The notes: generated by a model not told the origin, from the letters alone. Shown: positions 6,267-27,237, counted from the stretch's first letter. The stretch: DNA of 64,000 nt from Acidimicrobiia bacterium (GCA_023265025.1 JAHFUP010000016.1:4754-68753); one strand, 5' to 3'. Program-made: numbers and translations.

Positions 6267-6430
6267 CCTCCTGCGGGACCCCGGTCGTCGTTCCTCCTGC
6301 GGGACCCCGGTCGTCGTTCCTCCTGCGGGACCCCGGTCGTCGTTCCTCCTGCGGGACCCCGGTCGTCGTTCCTCCTGCGGGACCCGGTCGTCGTTCCTCC
6401 TGCGGACCCCGGTCGTCGTTCCTCCTGCCG
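6267..6430 (+). repeat. Tandem array of the 26-nt unit CCTCCTGCGGGACCCCGGTCGTCGTT (about 6.4 units), locus A
   Basis: Four perfect 26-nt units (6267-6370), two 25-nt variants, then a partial unit. No spacers. Intergenic. Confidence 0.95.
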
Positions 6431-6653
6431 TACCGGCTCTGTGGCATGCCTGTCCCGATCCATCTGTCGAGAGCACGCTCCTTCGGTCAACGCAGTTCCC
6501 GTTGCGCAACAGCCCGACGTGGCGCAGGGGTGGTCTCAGCCGCTGGCGGGCGTCCCGGAATACTGCCGACGCTTCGTCCGTCCCTGCGGTCGCTCAGCGA
6601 TTCCGGTACTCAGATAAAGGACGTCGGATCGGCGATGGCGAACCTTGGGTGCG

Positions 6654-6851
6654 CTATCGCACGTTGGGGTCCTCGACCCACTTTCTGCTGATCTCGCGGT
6701 AGCCAGGGGTAGGCCATTCACAGAGGCGATCGTCGCCGCAGCCGCGACACTCATACGTAGGGTTCTGCCTGTCATCGTAAAGCGCGGGTCCGATAAAGCT
6801 AAGGTCGGATGACCCACAGCGGGGACAGCAGTTCACGATCCGTCCGCCCAC
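6654..6851 (-). CDS. Small four-Cys zinc-ribbon-like protein (65 aa)
   Basis: GTG 6851 with GGAGGAG about 9 nt upstream. CPRC...CRGC pattern. GC3 is visibly lower than in neighbouring genes. Confidence 0.5.
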   Translation of the reverse strand: MGGRIVNCCPRCGSSDLSFIGPALYDDRQNPTYECRGCGDDRLCEWPTPGYREISRKWVEDPNVR

Positions 6852-7144
6852 CTCGGCCTACTCCTCCGGTGCGTATTGCGCGTTCAGGTCAAGTTAGCGC
6901 CAATTGGGGCTGGTGGCATTATCGAACCACTGACGGGTCCGTGTACGAGCCCGGTGGTGGAACGGACCAGATCACCGGTGGCGGCCGGGGAACCTCCGGC
7001 GGCGCGACTCGGGACCGCCTTTCAACGGGTAGTCGGAGACGCTGTCGCCTCGTTCCGCATGCCGATCCGCCTACGGCACAGCCCAACCGTGCTCGGAAGC
7101 TGCGGCCTGTGGCTCCCACGAGTTCGGTCTCGTAGAATGGCCGT

Positions 7145-7309
7145 GTGTCCGTGGTCGAGCAGCCAGAGCGTGAGCCCCTTCGGTCATTCACGGTCGATGA
7201 CGACCGTCTGACCGGCGCCCTGCCATCCTTGACCCCCGACGAGTTTGCGCTTGATGAGATCACCGACGTCGAGTGGGACGCTTTCCACGCCGCCATCGCT
7301 GACGCGTGA
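7145..7309 (+). CDS. Putative antitoxin (54 aa) of a VapBC-like pair
   Basis: GTG 7145. Stop TGA 7307-7309 overlaps GTG 7306 of the PIN gene (GTGA). Below the ORF-track length cutoff. Called from position only. Confidence 0.55.
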   Translation: MSVVEQPEREPLRSFTVDDDRLTGALPSLTPDEFALDEITDVEWDAFHAAIADA

Positions 7310-7746
7310 GCACCCGGCCGAGCCGGGCCAGCCACGTCGTGGTCGACACCGACGCCGCCAGCTGGCTACTCGACCCCCGGCCACTGCCTCGTGCGGAACG
7401 GGCCCGGGCTCTCGTCGGGAAGCGTGCCCGCGTCGTCTCGTTCGTGACGGTGACCGAGCTTCGATTCGGGGCGCTGCGTGCGGGCTGGGGCGAACTTCGC
7501 CTGCGTCAGCTGGAACGCTCCCTGGGCGACCTTGACGTCATCCAGACGAACGACACCCTGATCGCACGCTGCGCAGCCCTGCGGCATCAGGCCGGTCGGA
7601 CCGGTCATCCTTTGATGCAGAAGGTTCACGAGGCCGACCGATGGGTGGCGACGACTGCGCTGGTGCTCGATCTTGAGCTCGTCGCCGGCGACGGGATCTT
7701 CGAGGGCGTCCCCGGGCTCGCTCTGCACCGCGTGCATCTACCCTGA
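7306..7746 (+). CDS. vapC: PIN-domain ribonuclease toxin
   Basis: VVVDTDAASWLL ... TVTELRFG ... DRWVATTAL pattern typical of PIN/VapC. 4-nt overlap with the upstream small ORF. Confidence 0.8.
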   Translation: MSTRPSRASHVVVDTDAASWLLDPRPLPRAERARALVGKRARVVSFVTVTELRFGALRAGWGELRLRQLERSLGDLDVIQTNDTLIARCAALRHQAGRTGHPLMQKVHEADRWVATTALVLDLELVAGDGIFEGVPGLALHRVHLP

Positions 7747-7817
7747 CTCTCACAGTCCGTCGATGAGTCGACATGCTGAACGAGGCGAGTGCCAAACCCA
7801 GAAACGACCTGCGCCCG

Positions 7818-8448
7818 TCACCTACGGGGGTCTGTAGCCACTGGAGTGACCGCCGGCCGCTGGGCACGCTGACGGGCGACGTCGCGCTGGATGGCCCGGT
7901 AGACAGTGGAGCGGGTGACACCGAACAGGTCGCCCAACTCGGCGACGCTGTGCTCGGCGGCCCGGTGAAGCGCGACCAGGTGGGCCTCCTGGCGGACATT
8001 GAGCTTGGGCTGCTTGCCGCGTAGCCGTCCCTTGGCCTTCGCCACCCGCATCCCTTCCCGGGTGCGCATGCGGATCAGGTCCCGCTCGAACTCGGCGACC
8101 ATGGCCAGCACGTTGAACAACAGCCGCCCGACGGGGTCGGTCGGATCGTGGACCGAACTTCCCACACTCAGCTTGACTTGGCGGCGGGTGAGGACCTCGA
8201 CGATGGCCCGCGCATCCGGCAAAGAACGGGCGAGGCGGTCAAGCTTGGTGACGACCAGGGTGTCGCCAGCCCGGCAGGCGGCCTTCGCTTCTCTGAGGCC
8301 TGGCCGTTCGCGGTTCGTTCCGGTCAGCCCCTGGTCAACGTAGATCCGTTCGGCGCTGACGCAGAGGGTGGCAAGGGCATCCCGTTTGGGCAGTGAGGTC
8401 CTGTTCGTCGGTCGAGACACGGGCGTAGCCGATCAATAGAGCATCCAC
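7818..8448 (-). pseudogene. Serine recombinase (resolvase/invertase family) interrupted by a 1-nt frameshift
   Basis: From GTG 8448 (AGGAGG upstream) the frame reads VDALLIGYARVSTDEQDLTAQ (catalytic Ser motif). ORF 7818..8420 continues RDALATL..RIYVDQGLTGTNRERPGL with a C-terminal HTH. The frames differ by 1 nt at T-run 8385-8387. Confidence 0.85.
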
Positions 8449-8554
8449 GTTCCCCTCCTGGTGACGGTGATCATCAGGTTCGGCCCATGGGCACTTCTCT
8501 GCGCCGTGGCGCCCTGCACGGTTGGTCCGTGTCCATCCCCGAGGCTGTGGCTCG

Positions 8555-8610
8555 GCTCCTGCGGGACCCCGGTCGTCGTTCCTCCTGCGGGACCCCGGTC
8601 GTCGTTCCTC
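8555..8610 (+). repeat. 26-nt tandem repeat family, locus B (about 2.2 units)
   Basis: GCTCCTGCGGGACCCCGGTCGTCGTT followed by a perfect unit and a partial CCTC. Lies about 100 nt upstream of the recombinase start. Confidence 0.9.
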
Positions 8611-8799
8611 GACCGGCAGTGCTACCTTCGCACCGCCTCCATCCTCGTCGTGGACGGATCAACTCGCACGGAAGACCACCCCTCATGTCGGGGAGGTGCC
8701 GCGCTTGACGCGCGGTCCGCTCTAGCTGAGAGGATGGGCCACGTGGTGTCGGCCCAAGCGCCAAGTCACGAGGTAATCCACTCTAGGTCACTCGCGGAC

Positions 8800-10344
8800 T
8801 CATCTCGGCTGCACCACCTTGAGGTAGTCGTCAATCTGCTTGGCCATGGCCGGGATGCGCTGGGTGTAGCAGATGGCGCCCACGGCTTCGTAGCAGGGGT
8901 AACCCCTGCTGGATGCGAACACCGGGTCGACGTACCGGTAGCCCAGGCTGGACAGGAACGAGATCACGTAGTGACGGCCACCGTGGCCGGGGAGGGCCCG
9001 GACGATCCCTGCGTCGGACCCATAGTTGAACGTCAGGCCAGTCTTGTGGCCGAAGGCGACCTCGGCCGACTGGGCGCAGGGCCGGACGTCGGCCCCGTAC
9101 GAGTACGCGTCGACGATGGCAACACCCGTTGCCGGGTCGACCCATCGGGACGGCACGCCGGCGGGGATGCCGGGTCGGGTGTTCGGGGCGCCGCAGAAGT
9201 TCGACGTGGACAGCGCCTCGTTGTAGCCCTGGTCGTCGAGCAAGGACTTCAGATAGGAGCGGGAGCTGGCGGACAGGAGCGAGGCAGTGACGGGCGTGCC
9301 GTTCGGGCGCTGCCAGAGGGTGCCGCTACCGCCCTCGATGAGCCAGAGGAGCCGGGCCGTGTCGAGCGACGTCATGTGGATCTGGCCCGGCTGCCAGTTG
9401 CCGCCGGTCGTGGGGTCGGTGCCGTTGACCTGGAGCGTGCCCAAGCCGAGGTCGCGGAGCTCGGCGTGCATGGCCGGCAGGTCGTTGCGATCCTGGAGGA
9501 GTTTCAGTAGCGCCCGAGCTGAGCGGTTGCTGGAGACGGTCATCATCGGCTCCATCCAGTCGGCGATGGTACGGGTCTCCACGTCGCCGGCCAACGGTTT
9601 CGGCGTCACCCTGGGAGCTCGGCCGTGCTCGGGCCGCTCGGACATGCTGGCCTCACCCTGGGCCGCCTCGTCGGGCAGCGCGCCGCCCGTGCGGATGTAG
9701 GTGTACTTCTGCTTGAGGCTGAGCTTGCCGGCATCGACGAGACGCATGATGCGGTAGGCGACGACGACCTTGAACAGCGACGCCGGGTACGGCGCCATGA
9801 AGTCGATCGGAGCGCCCTCCCGACCAGCCAGGATGTCGTCGGCCGCGGTGCGGGCCGGGCTGTCGGTCCAGCCCTTGGGCGTGATCAGGTCCCCGGTGGT
9901 CTGGTCGAAGGTGCCGCCGTTGTACCGGTCGATGTCCCACCGCCGCCAGCGGACCGACCCTGTGCCGTAGGTCCCCGCGGCGCCCGCGGACGTGCGATCG
10001 ATCGGGACCACGATGCCGTTGGGGTAGTCACGCGACAACAGCACGTTGGCGACATCTACAGCTCGACCGGCTGCATCCAGCTCGATCACGGCCACGTCGA
10101 CGTTCGGCATGTTCCTGATCGGACCCGCGGGGACGGTGCAGAAGCCGGCGTACGGGCACACGTCCTCGAAGGGCCCGAAGTCGATCGTCTCGCCGAACTT
10201 CGCATCGCGGACCGCGGCCAGGACCGCCGCCTCCAACGAGCTCGGCTGGACGGTCTCGGCGCCGGCGGCCGTCAGGCTGGGGGCCACGGTGACCGCGACG
10301 AGGGCCAGGGCCATCACAATGCTCGAGCGCGCACGCAAGGACAA
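8800..10344 (-). CDS. Secreted serine hydrolase, class A beta-lactamase-like fold
   Basis: Signal peptide MSLRARSSIVMALALVAVTVAPSLTAAGA. SxxK (SLFK), SxN (SSN) and KTG (HKTG) occur in class-A order. Confidence 0.75.
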   Translation of the reverse strand: MSLRARSSIVMALALVAVTVAPSLTAAGAETVQPSSLEAAVLAAVRDAKFGETIDFGPFEDVCPYAGFCTVPAGPIRNMPNVDVAVIELDAAGRAVDVANVLLSRDYPNGIVVPIDRTSAGAAGTYGTGSVRWRRWDIDRYNGGTFDQTTGDLITPKGWTDSPARTAADDILAGREGAPIDFMAPYPASLFKVVVAYRIMRLVDAGKLSLKQKYTYIRTGGALPDEAAQGEASMSERPEHGRAPRVTPKPLAGDVETRTIADWMEPMMTVSSNRSARALLKLLQDRNDLPAMHAELRDLGLGTLQVNGTDPTTGGNWQPGQIHMTSLDTARLLWLIEGGSGTLWQRPNGTPVTASLLSASSRSYLKSLLDDQGYNEALSTSNFCGAPNTRPGIPAGVPSRWVDPATGVAIVDAYSYGADVRPCAQSAEVAFGHKTGLTFNYGSDAGIVRALPGHGGRHYVISFLSSLGYRYVDPVFASSRGYPCYEAVGAICYTQRIPAMAKQIDDYLKVVQPR

Positions 10345-10574
10345 AATCTCCGCCTCGTCCCCCCTGATTGTTGCCGCTCATGACCGGGGGAGCAGGTCAT
10401 GGCCACGCCGTCCCGACGACCCTCGCAGAACTGCCGGAGAGTGTCAAGACTCCACTCTCGCGGTGCAAGGGGACGACGACCTCGGGTGCCCGCAGGAGAA
10501 CCCGCTTGCAGGACTCAGGCGGTGAACATGGATGGCGTCTCGCACGTCGTACGGGACGGACCGGAACCGGGGTT

Positions 10575-10676
10575 CCTCCTGCGGGGCCCGGTCGTCGTTC
10601 CTCCTGCGGGACCCGGTCGTCGTTCCTCCTGCGGGACCCCGGTCGTCGTTCCCTCCTGGGTACCCGTTTCGTCGTT
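10575..10676 (+). repeat. 26-nt tandem repeat family, locus C (4 units, last degenerate)
   Basis: Units of 25, 25 and 26 nt, then a degenerate 26-nt copy (CCCTCCTGGGTACCCGTTTCGTCGTT). Intergenic. Confidence 0.9.
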
Positions 10677-10997
10677 GGCCGCGGCCGCCTCGATGACCTC
10701 GGTCAAACCCTTTCAGGCCTTGCCCATTTCAGGAGTGTCCAGGCCGGTGGGTAGCGACGGCGCCAACGAGTGCCCTGCAGTTCATTCATGCGCCCGGGTC
10801 TTCGACCAACGCGGTCGTAGCTCCTCCAGCATGATCACCACGGAGGATGGGGGGTAGCGGCGCCAGACGACCTGGCCTCGGAGCCAAAGCTGGAGACCCG
10901 AAGCAACCTGCGTCGCCATCGTCGGTCGGGAGCCGGCGGTCCGGCCGAGGCGCTTCGCGCGCCACCGCTTGGTCACCTCGCGGTGCTTGGCGGCGAC

Positions 10998-12215
10998 TCA
11001 GCCGACGATGATCTGCGCCCTCATGTCTCTGTGCACCAGGCACCGAACCTCGTAGGTCCCGGGGGTGGTGAAGGTGACCCGGTAAGACACCGCGCCCGGT
11101 GGATCGACGCTGAGCAATCCCGAGCTCTTCAAGCCCCGCCCGTCGAAGGTCGTCGGAGGCAGTTCGACGCCGGAGGTGAGCACGGGAAGGTAGGCGGTGA
11201 ACAGCGGTGGTGGAATCGGGCTGTCGACCGGCACGAAGGCCCTGGTGTTCAAGGCGACGGTGCCGTCCGGTGCCCGCCGGATCAGCCCGAAGTCGTCCTC
11301 GGTGGCGTTGAAGGCGATCGAGTGAGCCACCACCGCGTCGAACGACACCGTCTCACCGGTGGCGACGGACAGTCGGGTGGGGACGAACTCGGCCAGGTAG
11401 GCATTCGGAAGGTTCTGCCCGACGACGCCTGCGAGCATCTGCCTCGCCGCGGTTGGTCGGTTTCTACCCTCGGCGGCGCGGAAGGCCAGGCCCTGCGTCG
11501 TCTGCCGGCCCTGGCGCTCCACTTCGGCGGCCCGTGGCACTGGCACGGAGGCGTCGGCGACCGTGAGCGTCCCGGTCATTCGGCCTCCGTGCACCAGGCA
11601 CATGTACTGGTAGGTACCCGGTTTGGCGCTGGATGCGATGCGCACCTTGAACCGGTCGCCGGGCAGGAGCAGGCCGCTGTTGTAGAACGTCTCGGTGCCG
11701 GTGAACTCGGGCTGGGCCCGCTTCTCACACGCGGGAGCGCCTCCCTCGAGAGCGATCGGCGGCAGTCCGGTGGCCAGGAAACAGGGCTGGGCCGCGGACT
11801 GGTTGGCCTGAAGGGACGCATCCGGTGCTTGGCGCGGGAAGACCTGGGGGAGCTTGCGGCTGCCCTCGGCGGTGTTGATACCGGGCTCGACCAGGGTCCC
11901 GAAGGTGACCGTGTGAGGATCGTCACCCTCGGTGTCGGGCATCCGAAAGTCGAGCTCGTCACCTGCGTGTGCCTGCACGGAGGTGTTCGAGAAGGTCAGC
12001 ACCGCGCTGATGCCCTCGACCCTGCCCCCGACCCCGATCGAGATCGTCTGCCTCTCTGTGGTGCCCACCGTCGCCGGCCCGACGGGCTTCGTCTCAGGAG
12101 CGACCGCAGTCGGGCCCGCCTCGCCTCCGGCAGTGGGCGCGCCACTCCCATCGCAGCCGGCGGCGAGCACGCTCGCCCACACCAACGCCAACGCCAACGG
12201 AGCCCGCCTGTTCAT
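10998..12215 (-). CDS. Lipoprotein with two cupredoxin (type-1 copper) domains
   Basis: ATG 12215 with GGGAGAGG upstream. Lipobox LAAGC. Two copper-site patterns: HTVTF...YMCLVHGGRM and HSIAF...RCLVHRDM. Confidence 0.8.
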   Translation of the reverse strand: MNRRAPLALALVWASVLAAGCDGSGAPTAGGEAGPTAVAPETKPVGPATVGTTERQTISIGVGGRVEGISAVLTFSNTSVQAHAGDELDFRMPDTEGDDPHTVTFGTLVEPGINTAEGSRKLPQVFPRQAPDASLQANQSAAQPCFLATGLPPIALEGGAPACEKRAQPEFTGTETFYNSGLLLPGDRFKVRIASSAKPGTYQYMCLVHGGRMTGTLTVADASVPVPRAAEVERQGRQTTQGLAFRAAEGRNRPTAARQMLAGVVGQNLPNAYLAEFVPTRLSVATGETVSFDAVVAHSIAFNATEDDFGLIRRAPDGTVALNTRAFVPVDSPIPPPLFTAYLPVLTSGVELPPTTFDGRGLKSSGLLSVDPPGAVSYRVTFTTPGTYEVRCLVHRDMRAQIIVG

Positions 12216-12340
12216 TTCGCCTCTCCCTTGCCCCGGTCTCCATGATCCCATCGCCGGTGGCGGCACGCCCAGGTCCGTCATCTCCAGCCCGCCGCCTCGT
12301 CGCCACGACGCCCACCCCCGTCGTCGCTGGCCCTCGCACA

Positions 12341-12994
12341 TCACGAGGAAAGGGTGATCCCCGTCTGGATGGTGACGCCTTCGACGAACAGGCCGGCGAC
12401 GGAGAACGAGCGCCCGTCCGCCAGCCTGCCGCGAGCCGAGAAGGACGTCATCGGTACGTCGTTGGTGCCGTGGGGGCGCAGGACCTGGCCGAATGTGCTC
12501 GCCGTGCCCTCCAGGCGGGGCAGCGCGGCCAGCTCGCGCATTGGCAGTTTCCCATCGGCCAGAGCGCCTTCGAGGCTCGGCCAGTCGACGAACCACACCG
12601 GGACCGCGCCGAGCCCCGTGGTCACCGCCAGCGTCGGGGCGGGATCCTGGCCGGGACCGTGTTCCCAGATGTTGAACCCTTCCGTCATCGGCGGGTTGCA
12701 TCCGAAGGCGCCCGGTCCCGCAGGCGAGGGAAAGTCGAAGAAGGTCAGCGTGTCGAAGTCGAGGGGCACGCATCCGGGCGGGCGGTAGAACACGATCACC
12801 GCCCGGCTCTGGTCGTGAAAGATCTGCGGGGGCGACCCGATGGTGGTGATGCGGGCGTAGAAGGGCACGTTGCCGCCGTCGTTGGTGACCACCTCGGCTG
12901 AGGCGGTCGGCACTCCGCCCAGGGCGGCAGCGACGAGAAGCATCACGGCGACTCGCCGAAAGTGCCGGGGGCGGGGGGTTGCATATCGGTGCAT
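12341..12994 (-). CDS. Secreted hypothetical protein
   Basis: ATG 12994 with GAGGAAAGGAAG upstream. Signal peptide RRVAVMLLVAAALGGVPTASA. High GC3. Confidence 0.65.
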   Translation of the reverse strand: MHRYATPRPRHFRRVAVMLLVAAALGGVPTASAEVVTNDGGNVPFYARITTIGSPPQIFHDQSRAVIVFYRPPGCVPLDFDTLTFFDFPSPAGPGAFGCNPPMTEGFNIWEHGPGQDPAPTLAVTTGLGAVPVWFVDWPSLEGALADGKLPMRELAALPRLEGTASTFGQVLRPHGTNDVPMTSFSARGRLADGRSFSVAGLFVEGVTIQTGITLSS

Positions 12995-13008
12995 TGCGCT
13001 TCCTTTCC

Positions 13009-13688
13009 TCAGCGGTTCGTCACGGACAGGTGGTAGGTCGCCTCGGTGCAGAATCCTGAGCGGAAGCAACCCCTGAAGTGGACGAGGTGGTCGCCGTGAC
13101 TCAGGGGGGCGAGGAGGAGATGGATCCCACCGGCCACCGCCGGTTCGTACACGCCGGCGGGAGCGCCGAGGACGTTGCCCTCCTCAAGCATCAGCGCGAA
13201 GGGTGGAGACTCGACGAGGTAGTCGCCCATGTTGGTCACCGCCATACCGTCGATCTCGGCCGAGGCGGTCGCGCCGGTCAGGTCGAGCCGCAGCTGGTCG
13301 CGCAGGTCCTGCTCGGTGGCGCCGCCACCGGGGTCGTTGGCCCAGATGGTGTTCACGACAGGAAAGAAGAGGGCCCTCCCCAAGGCACCGAACAAGTGCG
13401 GGTGACCGCGTCCCCGAACGTGCCGGCGAGGAACCATACCGATCCTGACTGGCGGACGGCGCAGTTGGCGCCCGTCGGGTCCGCCACCGGGTTGTCGGCG
13501 GCGGACCCGGCCAGGGCCCACTGCCACCACCGCGCGCTGAGCTCGGCGTAGCCGCCACCATGCGCTCGGGTGGCCGCCGGCAGCACGCCTGAATCGGGGG
13601 CACGGGCAAGCGCTGGGACGCCGCCCACCGTCGCTGCCACGACCAACGCGACGGCGGTCAGCCTCGCGCCCGTGCGGAACAACTTCAT
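13009..13688 (-). pseudogene. Secreted hypothetical protein split by a 1-nt frameshift
   Basis: The signal peptide MKLFRTGARLTAVALVVAATVGGVPALA and ..RTCSVPWG lie in ORF 13353..13688. The continuation ..RALFFPVVNTIWAND.. lies in the frame of ORF 13009..13764. The switch is at C-run 13378-13381. Confidence 0.65.
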
Positions 13689-13905
13689 CGGGCTCCCTTC
13701 CGGGCCTCGCTCTGAGGTCCTCTGCTCTTACGGGCAACCTCGCATCGGTCAGCCCGCCAGACATCCGCCAAATGGCGGATCTCTGGACGACTCGATTGGG
13801 GCCGGACGCCGTAGCATCGGTCGGTGGGCCTCGGCGTCTCGGCTCCTACGGCGGCTGCGCCGACTGGCGGATGTGTCCCGATGAGGCGGGTGACAGGTTG
13901 ACGAA

Positions 13906-14088: not shown

Positions 14089-14118
14089 GCGCGACCGGGC
14101 GGCGAGCCCGGGGCAGCA

Positions 14119-18739: not shown

Positions 18740-19695
18740 ATGTCGCAGTTGCCGGACCGTCCCGACCTCGACCAGTTGCGGCGCCGCGCCAAGGAGCTCC
18801 AGCGGCGGTCGCCCGAGGGGACGACGCTGGCCGCCGCCCAGCTGGCGGTGGCCCGCGAGCTCGGGTTCATGAGCTGGGCCCGCCTGCGCGAGGCCGTCGT
18901 CTCGCGCAGGGCAGGCACGGTGGCGGCCATGTCGCCGGACAAGCACCGGGCTGCGTCCGTCCACCCTGCCTCTGAGTTCCTTGCCTCCGCCCGAGCCCGA
19001 GGCTGGGACCCCGGCAGGCTCCCGGTCGGCGCGGTGTTCACAGCCCAGACGTTCCTCACGAAGCACCTGGACACCCAGCCCGAGCGCTACCAGCCCTCGG
19101 CCACCCTCACGCCCACCAACGGCCGGGTGTTCGTGACCCTGGACGACCCGCCTGTGGCGGTCGCCTGCTTGGGGTTGGGCGCACCCGCCGTCGTGACCCT
19201 TCTTGAGCACCTCGCCGGGCTGGGCGTCCGGTGGTTCATCGCCGTCGGACCGGCGTCGGGGGTTGCCGTCGGCCTGGAGTGGGGTTCGTGCGTCGTGCTC
19301 GACCGGGCGCTCCGTGACGACGGTGTGTCCCAGCATTACGCCGCTCCGGCTCGCTACGCGGCCTGCGACGGCCCCTTGACAGAGCGCCTTTGTGGGGCGG
19401 TCAGGGCCAGTGGGATCGAGCCTCGCATCGGGGCGACCTGGACCGTGCCTATCCCATACCGGACCACGCTGAAGAGCTCGACGTCTACCGCGCTGAAGGA
19501 ATCCTCGTGACCGAGCTGACGACCGCCGCCCTGTTCGCTGTCGCCACCGCCCTCGGCGTGCATGCGGCCAGCGCCGTGACCGTGACGAGGACACTCGGTC
19601 CGCCACCCACCGGCTCGCGCCCGAGCCGTCGCAAAGGCCAGATCATCGAGCTCCTCGAGGCGGCGGTCGAGGCCATTCGGGCGGCGGCGGCATGA
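18740..19695 (+). pseudogene. PNP_UDP-type nucleoside phosphorylase-like protein with N-terminal helical extension, split by a frameshift
   Basis: ..GATWTVPIPYRTT in ORF 18740..19510 continues as AEELDVYRAEGILVTELTTAALFAV.. in ORF 19390..19695. The switch is near 19466-19469. Confidence 0.6.
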
Positions 19696-20585
19696 GCGCG
19701 AGATACTCCCTCGTCGGCGTGCGAAAGGCGACCACCGCGCCCCAGGAGGCGTTCATCGCCAAGACCACCGAGGTGCTCTCCGCCGACGACCGGGTGCTGG
19801 CCGCCTACCTCGTCGGGGGCTTCGCCGTCGGCATGGGCGACGCCTTCAGCGACGTGGACCTCCAAATCATCGTGGCGAAGGAGGCGGCGGAGGATCTGGC
19901 GGAGTCCTGGATCGAGTTGATCCACCGCATCGCTCCGACCGTCTGGATCCAGCCCTTCGGCATCGCCCCCGGCGCCGTGCGCCGCACGGGCGCCGGCGGC
20001 CTTTGCATCACCCCCGAGTGGATGCACTTCGACGTCGTGTTCCGGGCCGAGGGCGAGATCGACGCTCACACCGTCGTCGGCATGGTCCCGCTGTTCGACA
20101 AAGCAGGGCTGCTGCCGGGAGAGCCTGTGCCTCGGCCGGACCGCCGCACCGAGCCGTTCTACCCCGAGGTGACCGTCAACTTCTTCCTCTACATGGTCGG
20201 CAACGTCGTCAGCGCCATCGGGCGGGACGAGCCCGTGCCGGCCAGCAACGGTGTGATCATGATGCGCGACATCGGGCTCGTGGGACTTCTGCTGGCCGAA
20301 CAGGGTTGGGCGACGACGCGCGAGCACAACGCCGGGAATCCCTTCCCCTTCACCAAGCGCCTGCGCCGCTACCTCACGGACGAGCAGAACGCCCTGCTGG
20401 GGTCGCTGCCGCCGCTCAGCCCCACCATCGACTCGGCCATCGACGGCTACGTCGCCCTGATCGAGATCTTCCTGCCCCGAGCCCGACGGCTGGCCGAGGC
20501 CTCCGGCGGCGCCTTCCCCGAGGCCTACGCCCGCGCCGGCATCTCCTACTTCGAGCGGAGCGTGGGCGCCCGAATCACGGTGTGA
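19692..20585 (+). CDS. Pol-beta-superfamily nucleotidyltransferase (ANT(6)/Lnu-like)
   Basis: GGFAVGMGDAFSDVDLQII nucleotidyltransferase motif. ATGA overlap with the upstream gene. Confidence 0.7.
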   Translation: MSARYSLVGVRKATTAPQEAFIAKTTEVLSADDRVLAAYLVGGFAVGMGDAFSDVDLQIIVAKEAAEDLAESWIELIHRIAPTVWIQPFGIAPGAVRRTGAGGLCITPEWMHFDVVFRAEGEIDAHTVVGMVPLFDKAGLLPGEPVPRPDRRTEPFYPEVTVNFFLYMVGNVVSAIGRDEPVPASNGVIMMRDIGLVGLLLAEQGWATTREHNAGNPFPFTKRLRRYLTDEQNALLGSLPPLSPTIDSAIDGYVALIEIFLPRARRLAEASGGAFPEAYARAGISYFERSVGARITV

Positions 20586-20630
20586 GTCGGTGGGCAACCT
20601 CCAACACGACCCGCCAGGGGGCCAGCCGGT

Positions 20631-20680
20631 GCCGGTCGTCGTTCCTCCTGCGGGACCCGGTCGGCGTTCCTCCTGCGGGA
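20631..20680 (+). repeat. 26-nt tandem repeat family, locus D (about 2 units, partial ends)
   Basis: CCGGTCGTCGTT + CCTCCTGCGGGACCCGGTCGGCGTT + CCTCCTGCGGGAC. Lies between convergent genes. Confidence 0.85.
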
Positions 20681-20877
20681 CGGGACGACAGGATCGGGCG
20701 GTCGCCTGTCGCGTGTTCTGTGACAGCCCGGGGAGATAGCGGGCGACCCCGACCCGTCGATCTGGCGCCGAGCGGGCACTCTCGCTCAAGATTCCCTTTT
20801 CTGGACTCGCACCGCGGTGCCCGGCTACGTCGTGGCCGAACCGGGGGTGACGCACGAGGCACTCGGGTACCCGGGGA

Positions 20878-21615
20878 TTATGCGCTCGCCGCCGCCGCTG
20901 CCGCTGCTGCCGCCGCCACGGCCGCGGGCGTTCGGCGACCGACGATTGCGGGTGCCTCGTGTATCAGCTCGTGGTTCTCAAGTGCCGCAACCATGAACAG
21001 CGCAAAGTCCACTCGGCGCGTCATGTTGCTCTTGAGAATCGCGTCACCCACATGCCGACTCCAGACCGGAAGACCTTCGCTCTCGCCTTCCTCCAACTCG
21101 CTTCCCCGCACAACGGTCCACCGCGTGTCGCTGGCGAACACGCGCCGGCAGGCTTCAACCTGGTCGTCGAGGTCCACCGCTCGAAGGAGCTTCGCGATCC
21201 GGCCGAGAACAACTACCTTGAATCTGAGCCTCCGTGAGTAGACGTCCTGACCGTCAAGCGAGATGTGCCACCCGCTGGAGAAAATGAGGCGAGCGCCCGG
21301 TGGGGCGAGGTCGAGCACCGCTTGAGCCGTTTGGCGGGAGTACCCGAGGACACCTCGCGGCACGAGTACGGTGATCACACCGTCGCACCCGGCTACCGCT
21401 TGCTCGATGACCTCGCGGTCGTCCGTCGCCCCGGGTACGACGGTTATGCGGCCCGCGAACTCGTCGAGTTTCGGGACGCTCTGTTCACGGCATACGCCGA
21501 CCACCTCATAGCCGCGGTCGAGCGCATGCTGCACGATGTACTTTCCGGTCTTCCCCGAGGCCCCGACGACGCAGACCTTCATCTCGGTCGGGCGGCTTTG
21601 CGCATCCGTTGTCAT
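20878..21615 (-). CDS. NAD(P)H-binding atypical SDR (NmrA/BVR-B-like) with poly-Ala C-terminus
   Basis: MKVCVVGASGKTGKY Rossmann motif. ATG 21615 overlaps the stop of the upstream ORF (ATGA). C-terminal AAVAAAAAAAAAASA is encoded by a GCN repeat. Confidence 0.75.
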   Translation of the reverse strand: MTTDAQSRPTEMKVCVVGASGKTGKYIVQHALDRGYEVVGVCREQSVPKLDEFAGRITVVPGATDDREVIEQAVAGCDGVITVLVPRGVLGYSRQTAQAVLDLAPPGARLIFSSGWHISLDGQDVYSRRLRFKVVVLGRIAKLLRAVDLDDQVEACRRVFASDTRWTVVRGSELEEGESEGLPVWSRHVGDAILKSNMTRRVDFALFMVAALENHELIHEAPAIVGRRTPAAVAAAAAAAAAASA

Positions 21616-21848
21616 GATGCGTCGATCTGATGGGAGGCGAACCCTTTGGCGAAGAGCCAGTTCGGGAGAATCAGCTCGAAGAGGCCGCCCGGGACCAAGG
21701 CGACCGTCCCGGCGCCGTGTGTCACGTCGACCCCACCGACTCGGGCGGTCCCATGCACGCTGGAGTCCGGGCGATCGACTGGCGGGACGGCCGCCACCGG
21801 GCCCGACCCGACGAAGATCGCCTTGCCCAATGCTGTCCGAGCTCTCAT
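21612..21848 (-). CDS. Hypothetical 78-aa protein, translationally coupled to the SDR gene
   Basis: Stop overlaps the downstream ATG (ATGA). High GC3. No motif recognised. Confidence 0.4.
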   Translation of the reverse strand: MRARTALGKAIFVGSGPVAAVPPVDRPDSSVHGTARVGGVDVTHGAGTVALVPGGLFELILPNWLFAKGFASHQIDAS

Positions 21849-21954
21849 GGCACGTCCTCCCGTGACTGGATGTCACCGGAGTGTGCGCCACCGCCCTGTC
21901 AGCGTTCTTTGACGAAATGGCGGGCCGAGACAGAACGCCAACAGCCCCGTCCCG

Positions 21955-22416
21955 CTAGCTTCCCTCTGCCGCCGCCTTCAGGCGCTGGAGCGTCGCATGC
22001 ATCGTCTGGTCGTTTCGCTCTCCACGATCCCGTGCGCCGGTGATGTACGGCGAGAAGGTGCGCAAGAGGCGACCACGGCGATCATCGACCGACTCGGTGA
22101 GCAGGGTGGACTCCGCACCGAGAGGGGTGAACTCGTACCGCCAGCTCGCCACCGGCAGCCCCATGTAGGTGACGTCGAACGCCAGCTGCCGTCCCGGATC
22201 CGCGGCGACGATCGTCGCCCGCGTCGACCAGCGGTGCCAGCCGTTGCGGCTCGTGCCCCGAAAGCGGGCGCCGGGGCGGGCCTCCTGGAGACCCGGGAGC
22301 CACCGGCATCGCTCGCATTCTGGGCTCCATTTCCCCATGCGACGGACGTCGGCCAACAGGCGGTATATGTCCTCCGGGCGGGCCTCGATCTCGATGGCGA
22401 CCTGGCGGCTACTCAC
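21955..22416 (-). CDS. SRPBCC (START/polyketide cyclase-dehydrase-like) family protein
   Basis: Size and pattern fit (..IEARPEDIYRLLADVRRMGKWSPE..). Confidence 0.65.
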   Translation of the reverse strand: MSSRQVAIEIEARPEDIYRLLADVRRMGKWSPECERCRWLPGLQEARPGARFRGTSRNGWHRWSTRATIVAADPGRQLAFDVTYMGLPVASWRYEFTPLGAESTLLTESVDDRRGRLLRTFSPYITGARDRGERNDQTMHATLQRLKAAAEGS

Positions 22417-22452
22417 GTCGGCCTCACTACCGACATCACACGCCCGGCCGCA

Positions 22453-24240
22453 TCATCGACCGGACCCCAACAGTTCCGCGATGAGATCGTCCAGCCCCAC
22501 CGTCTCCACGTCGCTCCTCTGCTGCACGGCCAGCGGACTCCCGAGCGCGTCACGGGCGTCCCGCTCGATCGCCTCCAAGCTGCGCTGATCGGGGACGCGC
22601 AGCGGCAAGTTGCGACGGCCGCGCTCCCGGCGCGCCACGGCGAGCAATCGGATTACCTGGCCGTGCGCCGCCTCGGCGGCCGCGATCCGAGCCAGGTCCT
22701 CCAGGGCTTCGCAGGTCGCCGCGGCATGTCCGATGCGGGCGGCGAGCTCCAGCGCCCGGAGGTGCAGCCCACGGGCGTCGGCGAAGCGCCCAGCGGCGCC
22801 GTGGCTCTCACCCAGCAGGTGCAGTGCGGCGACCACCCCCTCGGTGTAGCCGATCGACTCCTGCGCGGCCAGGGCCTCCCGTGCCGCGGCGGCTGCGGCA
22901 TCGATGTCGCCAAGAAAGAGGTCGGCTCGAGCCGCCTGTTCGAGGGCAATGCCCACGACGTGCCGATCGCCGCATGCCCGGGCGGCGGCCAGGGCGGAGC
23001 CGGTCATGGACCGGGCGTCAGGCTCTCCGGCGTCGAGCGCGGTGCGGGCGCGGAGCACGGAGCAGACCGCCTCACCCCAGAGGTCGCCGGCCGCCCGGAA
23101 CCGACGGAGCGCCTCGTCATGGCTGGCCGCCGCCTCGGGATCCCCGAGCGCCCATTGCGCCACGGCCAGCGTGTTCAACGCGAGCCCAATCGCCTGATCG
23201 TCGCCGCCCTCACGGGCCAGCACGACGCTCTCGGCCCCAGCGGCACGCGCCCTCTCGAGCTGCCCGAGCGATGCGACGAGCAATCCGAACCCCCAGAGCA
23301 CCCTGGCTCGAACGAGCTGGGAGAGACCGGGCGTGGCCAGCGCCCGCTCGTGATACTGGATGGCTTCGTCGAGCATGCCGCTGAGTGTCCAGAACCAGGC
23401 TAGCGCGCCGGCAAGGCGGGCGGCCGTGGGGCCGTCGCCGGTTGCGAATGCCCAGTCGAGAGCAGCGCGGAAGTTGGCGATGTCGGCGCGGAGGCTGGCC
23501 AGCCATGGGCCTTGTTCGGGGCCGCGCACCTGGGCCTCGGCCACCTCCGCACGGGCGCGGTAGAAGTCTGCGTGTCGCCGACGGGTGTCCGGCGCTTCGC
23601 CGGACTGGTCGAGCAGCTCGTTGGCATAAGCGCTCAGGGTGTCCAGCAACCGGTACCGGTCGTCGCCCACGACGACGGCCATAGACTGGCGGACGAGCGC
23701 GGCGAGCAGGCCCAGCGGATCGGGTAGCTCATGGCCGGCGACGGCGACTGCCGCGTCCAGGTCGAAACTGCCTGCGAACACTCCCAGGCGTTCGAAGAAC
23801 CGCCGTTGCCGATCGTCGAGAAGCGCGAAGCTCCAGTCGATCGCGGCGCGCAGCGTCTGCTGACGGAGAGCCAGGTCACGCCCGCCTTCGACGAGCAGGT
23901 CGAATCGGTTCTGGAGGCGAGCCCGGATGGCAGCCGGAGTCAGCACGTCGGCCCTGGCCGCGGCCAACTCGATGGCCAGAGGCAGGCCGTCGAGCGCAAG
24001 GCAGATGGCGGACACGTCCTCGGCATTGCGGTCGGTCAGCTCAAAGTCCGGTCGCACACGCGCCGCCCGGTCTTCGAACAGGCCGACGGCCGGGAACGCC
24101 CCCGCCTCGCGGGCCGTCCGGGCCTGAGGCGGGGGCAGAGCGAGAGGTGGTACCGGCCAGGCGATCTCCCCGCTGATCCTCAGCGGCCTACGGCTCGTGG
24201 CCAGCACGCGCACCTCCCGGCCATGGTGGAGGACCCGCGT
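22453..24240 (-). pseudogene. 5'-truncated NB-ARC/TPR-type regulator (AfsR/SARP-LuxR-like ATPase family), N-terminal domains missing
   Basis: Similarity starts inside the ATPase domain (..VRVLATSRRPL..GLPLAIELAAAR..) followed by TPR-like repeats. No P-loop or DNA-binding domain lies upstream. Abuts an opposite-strand gene fragment. Confidence 0.7.
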
Positions 24241-24241
24241 T

Positions 24242-24364
24242 GACATCCTGCTCGACGTCTCCAACGCCGGGCTATGGATGGCCCACTGCCACATCGCCGA
24301 GCACGCCCAGAGCGGGATGATGTTCAGCTTCGACGTCGCCCGGCGCGGCCAGGGGGATCAGTAG
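24242..24364 (+). pseudogene. C-terminal fragment of a multicopper oxidase
   Basis: Reads DILLDVSNAGLWMAHCHIAEHAQSGMMFSFDV..*. HCHIAEHAQSGM fits the multicopper oxidase signature H-C-H-x3-H-x3-[AG]-[LM]. No upstream coding body. Confidence 0.75.
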
Positions 24365-24518
24365 CCCGGCGGTCGTCCTGATCGGCGACCACGCCGCCAC
24401 CGGAGACGAGCTTCCCAAGCGGTACGGGGCCACTTACCGGATCATCGCCTACCGGTCGGCCGGGGAGACGCTGCGTGCGCCTCAGCGGCTCGGATCCATG
24501 GCGTCTGGCTCCCGATGC

Positions 24519-24560
24519 GACCCCGGTCGTCGTTCCTCCTGCGGGACCCAGGTCGTCGTT
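24519..24560 (+). repeat. 26-nt tandem repeat family, locus E (about 1.6 units)
   Basis: GACCCCGGTCGTCGTT + CCTCCTGCGGGACCCAGGTCGTCGTT. Lies between the oxidase fragment and the IS remnant. Confidence 0.85.
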
Positions 24561-24639
24561 CGGCGAGCGGGTATGGCCAACGGAGCCACTCGGACGAGCT
24601 CGAGGGGGGCGAACTCGGAGTGAAGACCGCCACCCCGGC

Positions 24640-25033
24640 GCCCAGTTGAGCTTCGCCGACATCGGGGGTCACCGCTTCCAGATCTGTGAGACAGACCTCG
24701 CCGAGGAGGACGTCGCCTACATCGAAGCCCTTTACCGCGGACGGGGCCGGGCCAAGCGGCGCATCTGTGAGGCCAAGGACACCGGGCTGGCCAACCTGCC
24801 CTCGGCGTCCTTCGCCATCAACCAGGTCTGGGTCGAGGTCTGCCTCTTCGCCCAGGATCTGCTTTGTTGGCCCCGGCTGCTGCTCCTCGACGGCGACCTT
24901 GGGTGGGCCGAGCCCAAGCGGCTGCGCTACTGCCTCGGGGCGGAAATGGTTGCGCGTTGGCGACGCCTGGCCGTGGGTCGGCCAGCTCATCGGCGCGGTC
25001 GACCGGCTCCGCACGCTTCCGTTGCGCGCCTGA
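24640..25033 (+). mobile_element. IS1380-family transposase C-terminal remnant (frameshifted, no 5' part)
   Basis: ..HRFQICETDLAEEDVAYIEALYRGRGRAKRRICEAKDTGLANLPSASFAINQVWVEVCLFAQDLL..AEPKRLRY.. then, in another frame, ..WPWVGQLIGAVDRLRTLP*. Both match the IS1380 C-terminal pattern as I recall it. Confidence 0.65.
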
Positions 25034-25270
25034 GCCAGGGCGCATCTGGACCGCCGGCGGCCACGCGCTACGAGCCGGCACAAAACAGCCCATCCCGGCA
25101 CCGGACGCCCCGAAGCGGCCCGGAACCGACGAGCGCAGTCTGACTGCGCCTGGTCCGGGCGCCCGCCGGTTATTCGGGCAACTCGGTCGCTCACCGAACG
25201 GTCTGGGCTAGCTTTCGCAAAGATGGGTAAATCGTCGTGCTGCGTTGGCGCTCAACAGCGCCGGGTTCGT

Positions 25271-25768
25271 TCAGTCTGACCAGCGGGCCCGGTTGGCTGC
25301 GATAGACCTTCTCGCAGCCAGCAACACTCGTCCCAGCCACACCAACAGCCCCAAGTTGAGGATCAGCACTGGGAGGGTGGTCGACGTCACGGGAATGGTG
25401 ACGAGGAGCAGCCCGGCCAAAGGAAGCGCAGGCCATCGACCCGAGTCCGCCCGTTCGGCGACCCGGACGTCGAGGACGGCCCGCGCCGCATCGGGCGCCG
25501 GCTGTCCTTTCCGTATCCGTGTCAACGCAGCCTTGCGCGTCTCGGCATCGAGATCCCACACCACGGAGGGTCCGAAGAGCTTGCTGGCGGAGTGCAGGCC
25601 GCGACGGGCTATTGCGTACACCGCGAGAAGGGCAACGATTGTGAGGAAAAGGATCGTCCCGCTGGTAGCCAATCCCACGTGCCAGTCGAAGAAGGTGATC
25701 ATGACGAGCAGTACGGCGACCGCGCCGGCGAACATCGCCGGCACGACGATGTTCAACCTGCGCTTCAT
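25271..25768 (-). CDS. Hypothetical membrane protein (about 4 TM segments)
   Basis: Hydrophobic segments IVVPAMFAGAVAVLLVMITFF, GTILFLTIVALLAVYAI, LPLAGLLLVTIPV, LPVLILNLGLLVWLG. The start is uncertain (25768 or 25840). Confidence 0.55.
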   Translation of the reverse strand: MKRRLNIVVPAMFAGAVAVLLVMITFFDWHVGLATSGTILFLTIVALLAVYAIARRGLHSASKLFGPSVVWDLDAETRKAALTRIRKGQPAPDAARAVLDVRVAERADSGRWPALPLAGLLLVTIPVTSTTLPVLILNLGLLVWLGRVLLAARRSIAANRARWSD

Positions 25769-25921
25769 GTGCCGCGTCGCACGCAGCTCCCAACCCTCAC
25801 GCACGGGAGGGTCCCGTGCGGGGCTGGCCGCCGCTGACACTGGGCACCGAGTCCGAGCGGCGCCGCACAGCAGGTTTCACGAGATCAACCGGGGCCCTGC
25901 CCGCAGGCGGGATGAGACTGT

Positions 25922-26800
25922 TCAGGACTCGACCACGTCGAGCTTGAACCCCAGCTCGGCATCGACGGCGGTCCGCATCCGATCGATGGCGTCACGATCG
26001 TCCAACAGGTACCGGTCGAAGAAGTCGAGGCTCGTTGCGATAACCACCCGGGTATCGGGCAGAGGCCGGTTCTCCGTGCCGACGTAGGGCCGAGCATGGT
26101 CGGCGCTCGGCACGTCGCTGGGCGGGACGGTAAGCATGATCTTCGGCGGAGCGGCGTCGACGAACATCTGTCTGCCGCGCTCGAACGGAACTGATGGATC
26201 CGCAACGCCATGAACCACGAGTAGCGGCGTGTGGATTCCGGAGAAGTAGGCGGAACCTACCGGAGCAGAGCCGGCGAGCATGACGCCGGCCTTGACACGA
26301 CGATCCACGCAGCACCGGTTGAAACCGAGGCCGAGCACGGTGAACGCCCCCGCAGAGTGGCCAGCCAGGGCGATCCTTTCGGGATCGACCATCCCGGCAT
26401 ACGGGCTGGTCCGTTCGGCACTCATCGCCAAGAGCCGAGTAATCACAAAGCTCACGTCCTGCGGCGGGTACGGAGGATCGGAGGTGAGCTTCGGCGCCGC
26501 CACCACGTACCCCCCTCGGGCCCACGCTTCGAGCAGCACGCGGTAGTAGTCCGGATTGCTCCCGCTGCCGTGGACGAAGACGATCAAAGGAAACGCCCTA
26601 CCCGCCTCGGCCGGCGTGCGGACGGGGACGTACATGGTGGTGTCGAGGGCAGGCCGACTCTCGTCGGCGAACGACTCGGTGCGCACGTCGAAGCGGAACT
26701 CGCGTTGGGACTGCTCGGGGGTCCTGGACCCGCCGCCACAGGCCACGGCCAGGAGCGAGACGACAACGAGCCTCGCCGCCAACTCGATGTTCCGCCGCAT
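25922..26800 (-). CDS. Alpha/beta-hydrolase lipoprotein
   Basis: Lipobox LLAVACGG. Nucleophile elbow GHSAG. Also FVHGSGSNP. Confidence 0.75.
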   Translation of the reverse strand: MRRNIELAARLVVVSLLAVACGGGSRTPEQSQREFRFDVRTESFADESRPALDTTMYVPVRTPAEAGRAFPLIVFVHGSGSNPDYYRVLLEAWARGGYVVAAPKLTSDPPYPPQDVSFVITRLLAMSAERTSPYAGMVDPERIALAGHSAGAFTVLGLGFNRCCVDRRVKAGVMLAGSAPVGSAYFSGIHTPLLVVHGVADPSVPFERGRQMFVDAAPPKIMLTVPPSDVPSADHARPYVGTENRPLPDTRVVIATSLDFFDRYLLDDRDAIDRMRTAVDAELGFKLDVVES

Positions 26801-27162
26801 CGCCGTGAGGATACCGGTCCAAATGAAACCGCGACGGCTGGCTATTGTGCGGGCCAAATCTTCCGCTCTGCGCTGCGGGTGCCGACGGGCCCAGGCGGCC
26901 CCCGCGCAGAATCTGCCGCCCGTGGCACCTCGCTACTACGTCGTGGTGGCCGGCCACGCGGGGAGCGGGAAGACCCCCTTCCGTCGCCCTTGCTGCAGAG
27001 CTGCAGCTTCCTCTCATGCGCAGGGAAGCGTCAGCGCCGGTGCGCAGCGAACTGTCAGCGCCCGTGGTCGTGACAGCGCCCGGAAGCGAGGCTTGGTAGG
27101 ACCGGCCCACATCGTCAGTTCGGGCCTTCGGGGCCCGGAATCGTCGTCGGCGTCTTCGGCCA

Positions 27163-27237
27163 GGTCGTTCATCCTGCGGCACCCCGGTCGTCGTTCCTCC
27201 TATGGGAACCCGGCCGTCGTTCCTCGTGGGGCACCGG
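27163..27237 (+). repeat. 26-nt tandem repeat family, locus F (about 3 degenerate units)
   Basis: CATCCTGCGGCACCCCGGTCGTCGTT, CCTCCTATGGGAACCCGGCCGTCGTT, CCTCGTGGGGCACCGG. Confidence 0.8.

Follow-up and report, generated by a model that had tools for sequence, protein, structure and literature searches.

What are the 26-nt tandem repeats that occur head to tail at six loci in a single stretch of DNA from an Acidimicrobiia bacterium (GCA_023265025.1, JAHFUP010000016.1:4754-68753)? The window, which here means the whole stretch of 64,000 nucleotides, has a G+C content of around 70%, and a first description drawn from it, referred to below as the original prediction, offered three answers, namely a minisatellite spread by a strand-specific mechanism, a recombination or integration scar, and a transcribed decoy of Shine-Dalgarno (SD) or anti-SD character. 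The answer developed here is that the arrays form part of a family of 28-bp palindromic sites that has apparently not been described before and is scattered between genes in the accessory regions of a lineage of Acidimicrobiia-like Actinomycetota. We give an even chance to the reading in which these palindromes serve as crossover sites for conservative site-specific recombination, each array being a run of such sites chained together with overlap.

The six arrays were recovered with Tandem Repeats Finder and by scanning the 64-kb window with the 26-mer CCTCCTGCGGGACCCCGGTCGTCGTT, which at up to 3 mismatches gave nine matches, all on the plus strand, against an expectation of 0 from 100 dinucleotide-preserving shuffles. 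The positions, copy numbers and common polarity first described were thereby confirmed, as were the single-base and 1-nt length changes (25 vs 26 nt) among units that are not a multiple of 3, and neither method gave a comparable array past 27.3 kb. Relatives were drawn from 13 contigs of metagenome-assembled genomes (MAGs), all species-representative genomes containing the exact unit, and from 112 metagenome contigs matching the 25/26-nt pattern; these 125 loci, cited by L numbers, were compared together with the window. With taxonomy taken from the MAG titles, all but two of the 13 are Acidimicrobiia or Acidimicrobiales, and the two exceptions are titled 'Actinomycetes' and 'Acidobacteria'. 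Across the loci, 148 arrays of 1–7 units each were defined, with a unit length of 25 nt in 114 cases and 26 nt in 46. No description of the unit or the palindrome was found in Rfam, in the plasmid and phage collections or in the searchable literature, and within that scope the unit still stands as an element not described before; the plasmid collection returned merely weak chance matches in Streptomyces clavuligerus plasmids.

Arrays Nested within a Palindromic Site

The consensus of the palindrome is GTCCCGCAAGCGG-AT-CCGCTTGCGGGAC, two 13-bp half-sites around a central dinucleotide, and its conserved frame reads GTCCCGCA-nnnn-GGWTCC-nnnn-TGCGGGAC. At up to 8 mismatches, 103 such palindromes were counted in 482 kb of related loci and 0 in shuffles, and 14 (at up to 7 mismatches) lie more than 75 nt away from any array. 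The central dinucleotide was AT in 53 palindromes, TT in 29 and AA in 18, with sites free of an array centred on AT and those bearing one centred on TT, as read in the orientation of the unit. The layout of an array is thus left half, TT, units and right half. A left half was found directly to the left of 41% of arrays and a right half to the right of 40%, far above the background of about 0.5%, and therefore the array is nested at the centre of the palindrome. In unit orientation, the left flank typically ends GTCCCGCAAG(C/T)CG-TT, and CCTCCTGCGGGAC or CGGCTTGCGGGAC often comes after the array. The first array of the window is a clear case, as the sequence that abuts it, GTCCCGCAAGACG-TT, repeats the CCTGCGGGAC portion of the unit as its inverted complement, which places the array within a palindrome; together with the first CCTCCTGCGGGAC of the array, this left half makes up a 28-bp palindrome.

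The unit can itself be read in terms of half-sites. A unit of 25 nt consists of the right half CCTCCTGCGGGAC, the last 3 nt of which double as the first 3 of a degenerate left half (GACCCGGTCGTCGTT, which agrees with GTCCCGCAAGTCGTT at 11 of 15 positions), and this overlap of 3 nt makes the array a chain of overlapping sites with a period of 25. A non-canonical 25-nt example of the same chain construction is present in L064. The CCTCC of the unit, in turn, is a two-base variant of the inner part of the half-site (CCGCT to CCTCC).

Conservation depends on the position within the site: GGWTCC at the centre and the outer 8 bp are kept, and positions 9, 11 and 12 vary and are often unpaired. Two compensatory changes were seen among 53 departures from the consensus pair at position 7, mispairs of the GT/TG and AC/CA types were equally common (74 each), and the half-sites of one locus showed no significant covariation in the canonical class, whether regarded as the arms of a hairpin or as terminal inverted repeats. 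As conservation follows position, pairing is not kept and the mispair types are equal, the pattern argues for a double-stranded DNA sequence read by a protein and not for a structured RNA hairpin. The 13-2-13 layout is that of hix, gix and site I of res.

Homology Ends at Site Centres

The sites coincide with the places where homology between contigs stops. In an all-against-all comparison of the loci, 23 of the 69 homology ends internal to both contigs fell within 20 nt of a site centre, and random placement in the same contigs (2000 trials) gave a mean of 1.7 and a maximum of 7. Nearly identical gene blocks of 2.0–2.4 kb recur in different contexts, with homology stopping at palindrome centres or at junctions between units. 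Two such blocks are found in L126, an 11.3-kb contig that was found via the recombinase discussed below and not via the repeat. Positions 1628–3690 of L126 share 2.06 kb at 99.6% identity with L064, and both ends lie at palindrome centres, identity beginning on the left at AT-CCCCTTCCGGAGC and ceasing on the right after GTCCCGCAGGCCGATC. Positions 6949–9338 share 2.39 kb at 99.5% with L073, in a block that carries an M10 peptidase and two small open reading frames (ORFs). The left end of this block lies within an array (1 vs 3 units) between unrelated left flanks, and the right end comes directly after GTCCCGCAGGCGGATCC, where the right halves differ and the sequences become unrelated.

The same pattern of homology ends was seen for L100/L110, L069/L079 and L021/L126, and L073 and L100 have a common right flank with a different left palindrome and spacer (2 vs 3 units). 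A 91-nt piece made up of a palindrome, a spacer and a half-palindrome is 95% identical in L060 and L123 between unrelated flanks, its second site being centred on AT without an array in L060 and on TT with an array in L123. The junctions, then, join the left half of one locus to the right half of another, with a resolution of a few nucleotides that does not define an exact cut. Assembly chimeras are an unlikely cause of the junctions at solitary sites and a conceivable one inside long arrays, since the contiguous sequence common to different solitary sites is just 13–19 nt or so and the assemblies differ: that of L126 (JGI sample 3300041037) is distinct from those of L064 and L073, and the Ga identifiers of the latter two also differ. 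In a comparison of the presence or absence of arrays at orthologous loci, both flanks could be matched across an array in only four locus pairs (six rows with reciprocals), all of equal array length, and the informative cases come from one-sided homology.

The scar proposed at the outset therefore finds the best support among the three original answers, in that arrays and palindromes coincide with the ends of homology, but they look like sites of exchange, not like scars. The anatomy and distribution of the sites, the position-specific conservation and the placing of homology ends at site centres are observations; the making of these junctions by a recombinase, the identity of that enzyme and the origin of the arrays are what we infer. 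An exchange at the centre of a site would connect the left flank of one locus with the right flank of another, and gene blocks between two sites could thereby move among contexts. Each junction between units, formed of the degenerate left half, TT and the right half, would offer an extra possible crossover point, and the copy number would change whenever two different junctions recombine or replication slips. Mosaic blocks, as well as the gene remnants beside arrays, would result from exchange between sites of separate loci.

A Candidate Recombinase

The original prediction correctly placed one array next to a serine recombinase gene, which is a frameshifted remnant. Its product begins ...LLIGYARVSTDEQDLTAQ, and the frame breaks after ...STDEQDLTAQ, at about codon 21, so that the catalytic N-terminus (YARVSTDEQ) lies in another frame than the rest; the gene is probably a pseudogene, with a sequencing error as the alternative. 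The closest solved structures are those of the Gin invertase (4m6f and 3uj3, E 1e-29), followed by the gamma-delta and Tn3 resolvases. DNA homologues or fragments of the gene adjoin arrays in L072, where it is intact, and in L007, L006, L009 and L054.

What draws attention to this gene is its own relation to the sites. In the array-free contigs L127–L133, a recombinase-bearing block of 2.0 kb is 99.6% identical in two contexts, and each of its ends coincides with the centre of a weak 13-2-13 palindrome (GTACGGCAGGCCG or GTCTCGTAAGTGG followed by AT and CGGCTTGCGCACA). The recombinase stop codon lies inside the left half-site in L126 (GTGTCGTAGCGGG-TT-CGGCTTGCGAGAC), L006 and L054, and in L134 a 13-2-13 palindrome begins at the stop codon. 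The bounded block and the stop codon within the site thus make the recombinase gene itself a site-bounded module and the best available candidate for the enzyme. The likeliest enzyme would be the Gin/Hin-like small serine recombinase, whose own gene is one such block, the window copy having presumably been inactivated.

An inverted repeat, GGTGACGGTG(G/A)TCA(C/T)CAGG, lies 10–30 nt upstream of the recombinase start in the window, in L072 (around 1597–1615) and in L007. The DNA beyond it diverges among these three loci, and it may be an autoregulatory operator. A further truncated copy of the gene is seen in L122, where relative to positions 4897–5149 of L126 some 250 bp covering the recombinase start are gone at about 3840, fusing the upstream DNA to codon 55 or so.

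Weighing the Explanations

Several points weigh against the crossover-site reading and against this enzyme in particular. The recombinase family is very abundant in Actinomycetota, with 7873 matches at E <= 1e-30, and because it is so common and has close homologues in the array-free contigs L127–L133, it is not a specific marker of the repeat. A rule that the recombinase is always upstream of an array is ruled out by those contigs and by L126, in which no array lies directly upstream of the gene. The gene or its fragments occur in about 6 of the first 126 sequences (the 125 loci and the window), and with most arrays having no such neighbour, the apparent link between recombinase and site is circumstantial. 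In the window, an intact left half-site is present at array 1 only and an upstream palindrome at array 3 only. The loci, moreover, are mostly short metagenome contigs, and as they were gathered through the exact unit, well-preserved arrays are over-represented among them. A unique spacer of fixed length (41–46 bp) between paired sites is accounted for neither by the crossover-site model nor by any other explanation considered. Small serine recombinases such as Gin and the resolvases normally act within one molecule, by inversion or resolution, and are not known to move cassettes between sites, and palindromes can provoke illegitimate recombination at their centre without a dedicated enzyme. 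It is because such enzymes act intramolecularly, and because the candidate is tied to the sites by association, that we hold the crossover-site reading at the midpoint between doubt and belief.

The main rival explanation, if one on the unlikely side, is that these are selfish or structural palindromic repeats like the repetitive extragenic palindromic (REP) sequences and bacterial interspersed mosaic elements (BIMEs) or like BOX, with recombination as an incidental effect of the homology among scattered copies or of breakage at hairpins or cruciforms. They would be spread by a trans-acting transposase or by gene conversion, the internal module would grow by slippage like boxB in the pneumococcal BOX, and any cellular role would be that of hairpins, for example in termination or in the protection of mRNA 3' ends. 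Much of the distribution fits, as 143 of the 148 arrays are intergenic, the copies are many, the family is confined to one lineage, and the build is modular with a variable copy number. Furthermore, 35 of 148 arrays (24%) lie within 30 nt of a contig end, which is typical of multi-copy repeats since these are expected to break assembly. The half-sites decay independently from the consensus, as copies of a master element would, and a palindrome at the recombinase stop codon is also where a terminator would stand. The conservation of the outer 8 bp and the centre is, however, unlike neutral decay, and base pairing is not kept; folding is not above that of shuffles, arrays face the 5' and 3' ends of genes alike (35 vs 35), and no single gene family is enriched among the 73 genes nearest the arrays, with no REP-associated tyrosine transposase (RAYT) family among the best 25 of those matched. 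The 13–19 nt or so shared between solitary sites would be little for homologous recombination to work on, yet at the junctions whole sites are restored with their 2-nt centre. It is this precision, together with the position-specific conservation, that favours the crossover-site reading over a REP- or BOX-like element.

The sequence CCTCCT, which is indeed present in each unit with AGGAGG on the other strand, prompted the notion of an element acting as RNA, in which CCUCCU (anti-SD-like) or AGGAGG (SD-like) would act as part of a regulatory leader or, in the manner of a decoy or sponge, capture ribosomes or an RNA-binding protein. Flanking genes are more often opposite to the unit strand than on it (44 vs 26), so that co-transcripts would more often carry AGGAGG, and four of the window arrays lie some 110–230 nt upstream of minus-strand genes. 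These distances, however, are too great for the arrays to be the SD of those start codons, and the CCTCC is a variant of the half-site. As first described, there is no stable hairpin within the unit, the folding of array 1 being that of shuffles (z -0.18 and -0.44 on the two strands). Rfam gave no match in the window at gathering thresholds and one tRNA only in nine related loci at E <= 1, and RNAalifold on 18 conserved left flanks gave 13 pairs with essentially no covariation. With G-U-type and A-C-type mispairs equal, the gene ends faced evenly, and 1–7 copies at many loci per genome unlike the sponge RNAs known, the decoy is unsupported and an RNA-level role appears improbable.

More improbable still is a clustered regularly interspaced short palindromic repeats (CRISPR)-like or other spacer-acquiring locus, in which two 28-bp repeats and a spacer of 41–46 bp would result from the insertion of a fragment with duplication of the repeat. 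The sharp start-to-start peak of the paired palindromes and the lack of sequence conservation in the spacers would suit such a locus, but there are nearly always just two repeats, these are fully palindromic, unlike CRISPR repeats, and those within a locus are no more alike than those of different loci. No cas or casposase-type family is among the best 25 of the 119 neighbour families, and the unit and the perfect palindrome each had 0 matches in viral contigs (the spacers were not among the queries).

As for the minisatellite, variation in copy number is real (1 vs 3 units in L126/L073, 2 vs 3 in L073/L100), but the uniform polarity did not hold beyond the window. Adjacent arrays in other contigs have the same orientation in 10 cases and opposite orientations in 8, so that the agreement of all six arrays in the window is a local feature, with a probability of about 3% by chance. 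The size and anatomy of the unit are also not those of a mycobacterial interspersed repetitive unit (MIRU).

Comparison with Known Systems

The crossover-site reading invites comparison first of all with hix, gix and res. The likeness lies in the inverted half-sites of about 13 bp around a central dinucleotide (103 copies vs 0 in shuffles), in the strongest conservation falling on the outer half-site and the centre, where homology breaks, and in a Gin-like recombinase gene that adjoins or overlaps the site. In contrast to those systems, the sites here bound blocks in varied contexts and not one invertible segment or cointegrate, they form head-to-tail chains overlapping by 3 bp, a further site stands at a constant distance of some 71 bp beyond a spacer of unique sequence, and neither a Fis-type enhancer nor the accessory-site layout of res was identified. 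An invertase that acts on many dispersed sites is known in Mpi of Bacteroides fragilis.

A second comparison is with the dif modules of Acinetobacter plasmids, which have pdif (XerC/XerD) sites on their flanks (PMC6449649, PMC13141974, PMC7399989). Here, too, many imperfectly palindromic 28-bp sites lie in accessory DNA and bound gene modules in varied contexts, and an 11-6-11 reading around GGATCC fits the 28 bp as well. The present sites differ in being chromosomal and intergenic in Actinomycetota, not on Acinetobacter plasmids, and in having a serine and not a tyrosine recombinase as the candidate enzyme. The pdif sites are not known to form tandem overlapping arrays, and the arms of the 28-bp site are presumably unlike the dif consensus.

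With BOX of Streptococcus pneumoniae and the BIME-2 clusters of REP in E. coli, the family shares an intergenic location, a modular build in which inverted modules at the two ends enclose an internal one that varies in tandem copy number, and a lineage-specific occurrence in many copies per genome; with REP and BIME in general, it shares extragenic imperfect palindromes in many copies. The unit here is, however, much shorter, at 25–26 nt as against the 45 nt of boxB, it derives from overlapping half-sites, base pairing is not conserved, and the 5' GTAG motif of REP is not in the consensus. A link to RAYTs was likewise not apparent, with no Y1 transposase family among the best 25 of the 119 neighbour families. 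MIRU units are 40–100 bp long, often with small ORFs that couple neighbouring genes. The arrays resemble MIRUs and variable number tandem repeats in being intergenic tandem repeats of an actinobacterial genome that differ in copy number between relatives, but their units of 25–26 nt, which sit inside a palindrome and whose length is not divisible by 3, place them outside that class. They also fall outside CRISPR arrays, there being usually two diverged palindromes, and outside the attC sites of integrons, as the junction GTT is followed by pyrimidines (GTTCCTCC) and the attC core reads GTTRRRY; no IntI-type gene is among the best 25 neighbour families.

A broader proposal can be made only tentatively, and we consider it more doubtful than not. 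It holds that Actinomycetota may have a chromosome-wide system of module exchange in which a Gin-like small serine recombinase, acting on dispersed 13-2-13 sites and their tandem chains, would excise, insert and swap blocks of accessory and defence genes, the arrays serving as multi-register crossover tracts, as a serine counterpart of integron cassettes and Xer-dependent dif modules. If the sites are indeed sites of recombination, they would explain the shuffling of accessory and defence-type genes, such as the TIR, NB-ARC/WD40, beta-lactamase-like and aminoglycoside phosphotransferase genes found beside arrays, in a large and mostly uncultured group of soil and desert Actinomycetota. There would then be a third kind of site-bounded gene module system besides integron cassettes and dif modules, with a possible driver in a small serine recombinase, an enzyme family regarded as confined to inversion and resolution. 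On a practical level, the arrays break metagenome assemblies and mark mosaic junctions, which matters for binning and the reading of synteny, and variation in their copy number could be a strain marker.

Paired Sites and Their Flanks

A second palindrome is often found about 71 bp upstream of the one that bears the array, and the start-to-start spacing of palindromes peaks at 69–73 nt (27 cases). The spacer between them is mostly 41–46 nt long and without sequence conservation (e.g., L123:533-620, L017, L100 and L085). The polarity of the doublet is constant, with the solitary palindrome followed by the spacer and then by the palindrome bearing the array; in L085, a central palindrome has two arrays that point outward. 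An accessory-site role for the spacer, by analogy with res sites, is one possibility. The doublet was also considered as a miniature inverted-repeat transposable element, in which a right half, 43 nt and a left half would make a 71-bp element with terminal inverted repeats, and this was set aside, as different loci have unrelated spacers and complete palindromes also occur singly.

A conserved block, ...CGCATAGCCCCCCGTCCCGGGACGGTTCACCGGACCACCCTTACGGGAC, termed 'class 2', to which the left flanks folded above belong, takes the place of the left half of the upstream palindrome in many samples, at no fewer than 24 loci. Examples are L004 (2896–3127, minus strand), L013, L024, L032, L039, L053, L061, L066, L067, L070, L071, L085, L093, L094, L097, L110, L114, L115, L117 and L121. 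The block is absent from the window, and weaker conservation continues for about 100 nt upstream of it. The block came with no consistent upstream gene, Rfam match or covariation, and may represent one end of a particular element that underwent recombination at the centre of the site. Another conserved sequence, GCCGAGATGGATAACCGCAGGGGCGC...GTTCTGGGACGCG..TTCTGGGACAC, with a direct repeat of TTCTGGGAC, follows some arrays (L032:4929-5100, L037, L062, L069, L123:665-800, L017, L112 and L019), and in L032 the 'class 2' block, the array and this post-array block are contiguous.

Arrays and Genes in the Window

The features of the window that bear on the sites are collected in Table 1.

Table 1. 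Arrays, palindromes and adjoining genes in the window (coordinates from its first nucleotide; TRF, Tandem Repeats Finder).
Feature	Position	Strand	Remarks
PLD-domain gene	3699-5942	+	
Left half-site GTCCCGCAAGACG and central TT	6252-6266	+	Abuts array 1; 0 mismatches at 9 constrained positions
Array 1	6267-6433	+	TRF 6263-6428, 6.5 copies, 97% matches; 4 exact 26-nt units, then 2 25-nt units and a terminal degenerate right half-site CCTCCTGCCGTAC
Solitary 28-bp palindrome GTTCCGCATGCCG-AT-CCGCCTACGGCAC	7052-7079	.	AT centre, without array
Gin-like small serine recombinase gene	7818-8448	-	Pfam Resolvase, E 1.6e-32; probable pseudogene
Inverted repeat GGTGACGGTGATCATCAGG	8460-8478	.	Just upstream of recombinase start
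Array 2, two units	8555-8610	+	TRF 8556-8610, 2.1 copies, 100%; about 107 nt upstream of recombinase start, on the strand opposite to that gene
Beta-lactamase-like gene	8800-10377	-	
Upstream palindrome P1 of array 3, GTGCCCGCAGGAG-AA-CCCGCTTGCAGGAC (whole: GTGCCCGCAGGAGAACCCGCTTGCAGGAC)	10486-10514	.	Left half is an 'inverted copy' of the array unit
Unique stretch from P1 to array 3, 60 nt	10515-10574	.	Within 55-60 nt of 24/26 loci
Array 3, about 4 units of 25-27 nt, last degenerate	10575-10676	+	TRF 10572-10676, 4.1 copies
Array 4, two 25-nt units	20631-20681	+	TRF 20632-20681, 2.0 copies; begins 46 nt past the stop of gene 19497-20585 (+)
Array 5, about 2 units	24519-24573	+	TRF 24519-24571, 2.0 copies, 81%; trailed by right-half-like CGGCGAGCGGGTA; about 160 nt upstream of TPR gene 22453-24357 (-)
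Array 6, about 2.8 degenerate units	27163-27237	+	TRF 27164-27235, 2.8 copies, 76%; upstream of alpha/beta-hydrolase gene 25922-26932 (-)

Further along, the window holds genes for a LuxR/STAND regulator, an ABC ATPase, a TPR protein, an alpha/beta hydrolase and a beta-lactamase, and from about 28 kb housekeeping-like genes follow, such as those for sulfate assimilation (APS kinase, sulfite reductase and PAPS reductase) and two-component signalling. The view that the arrays occupy an accessory third of the window was a fair one, since genes of the housekeeping type fill its right part. In the other loci, for which genes were called as ORFs filtered by third-position G+C content (GC3) for this analysis, the 73 genes nearest arrays match 119 Pfam families, none of them in more than three loci, which rules out one specific partner gene. 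The families include TIR, TetR, WD40, NB-ARC, resolvase, APH, cupin and transposases, content typical of accessory regions and defence islands. Gene remnants abut arrays as well: recombinase fragments cut at residues 119–122 adjoin the arrays of L006 and L009, and a truncated nucleotidyltransferase-like gene adjoins that of L124.

In L013, a tRNA (929–1001, plus strand) and a tyrosine-integrase-like ORF (1104–2324, plus strand) lie within about 600 nt of an array (458–508, minus strand), which suggests an integrative element beside the repeat. Two other sets of tandem repeats are probably coding and unrelated to the arrays. One is in L077 (1415–2460), on the same contig as 25-nt arrays, where a 126-nt repeat runs for 8.3 copies at 92% identity and is probably TPR-like, given its period of 42 codons and the TPR-type genes nearby. 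The other, at 59984–60242 of the window, comprises overlapping repeats of 24–27 nt inside an ORF (59175–60302, plus strand), and among the ORFs scanned there, one has a match to the RTX calcium-binding nonapeptide repeat family.

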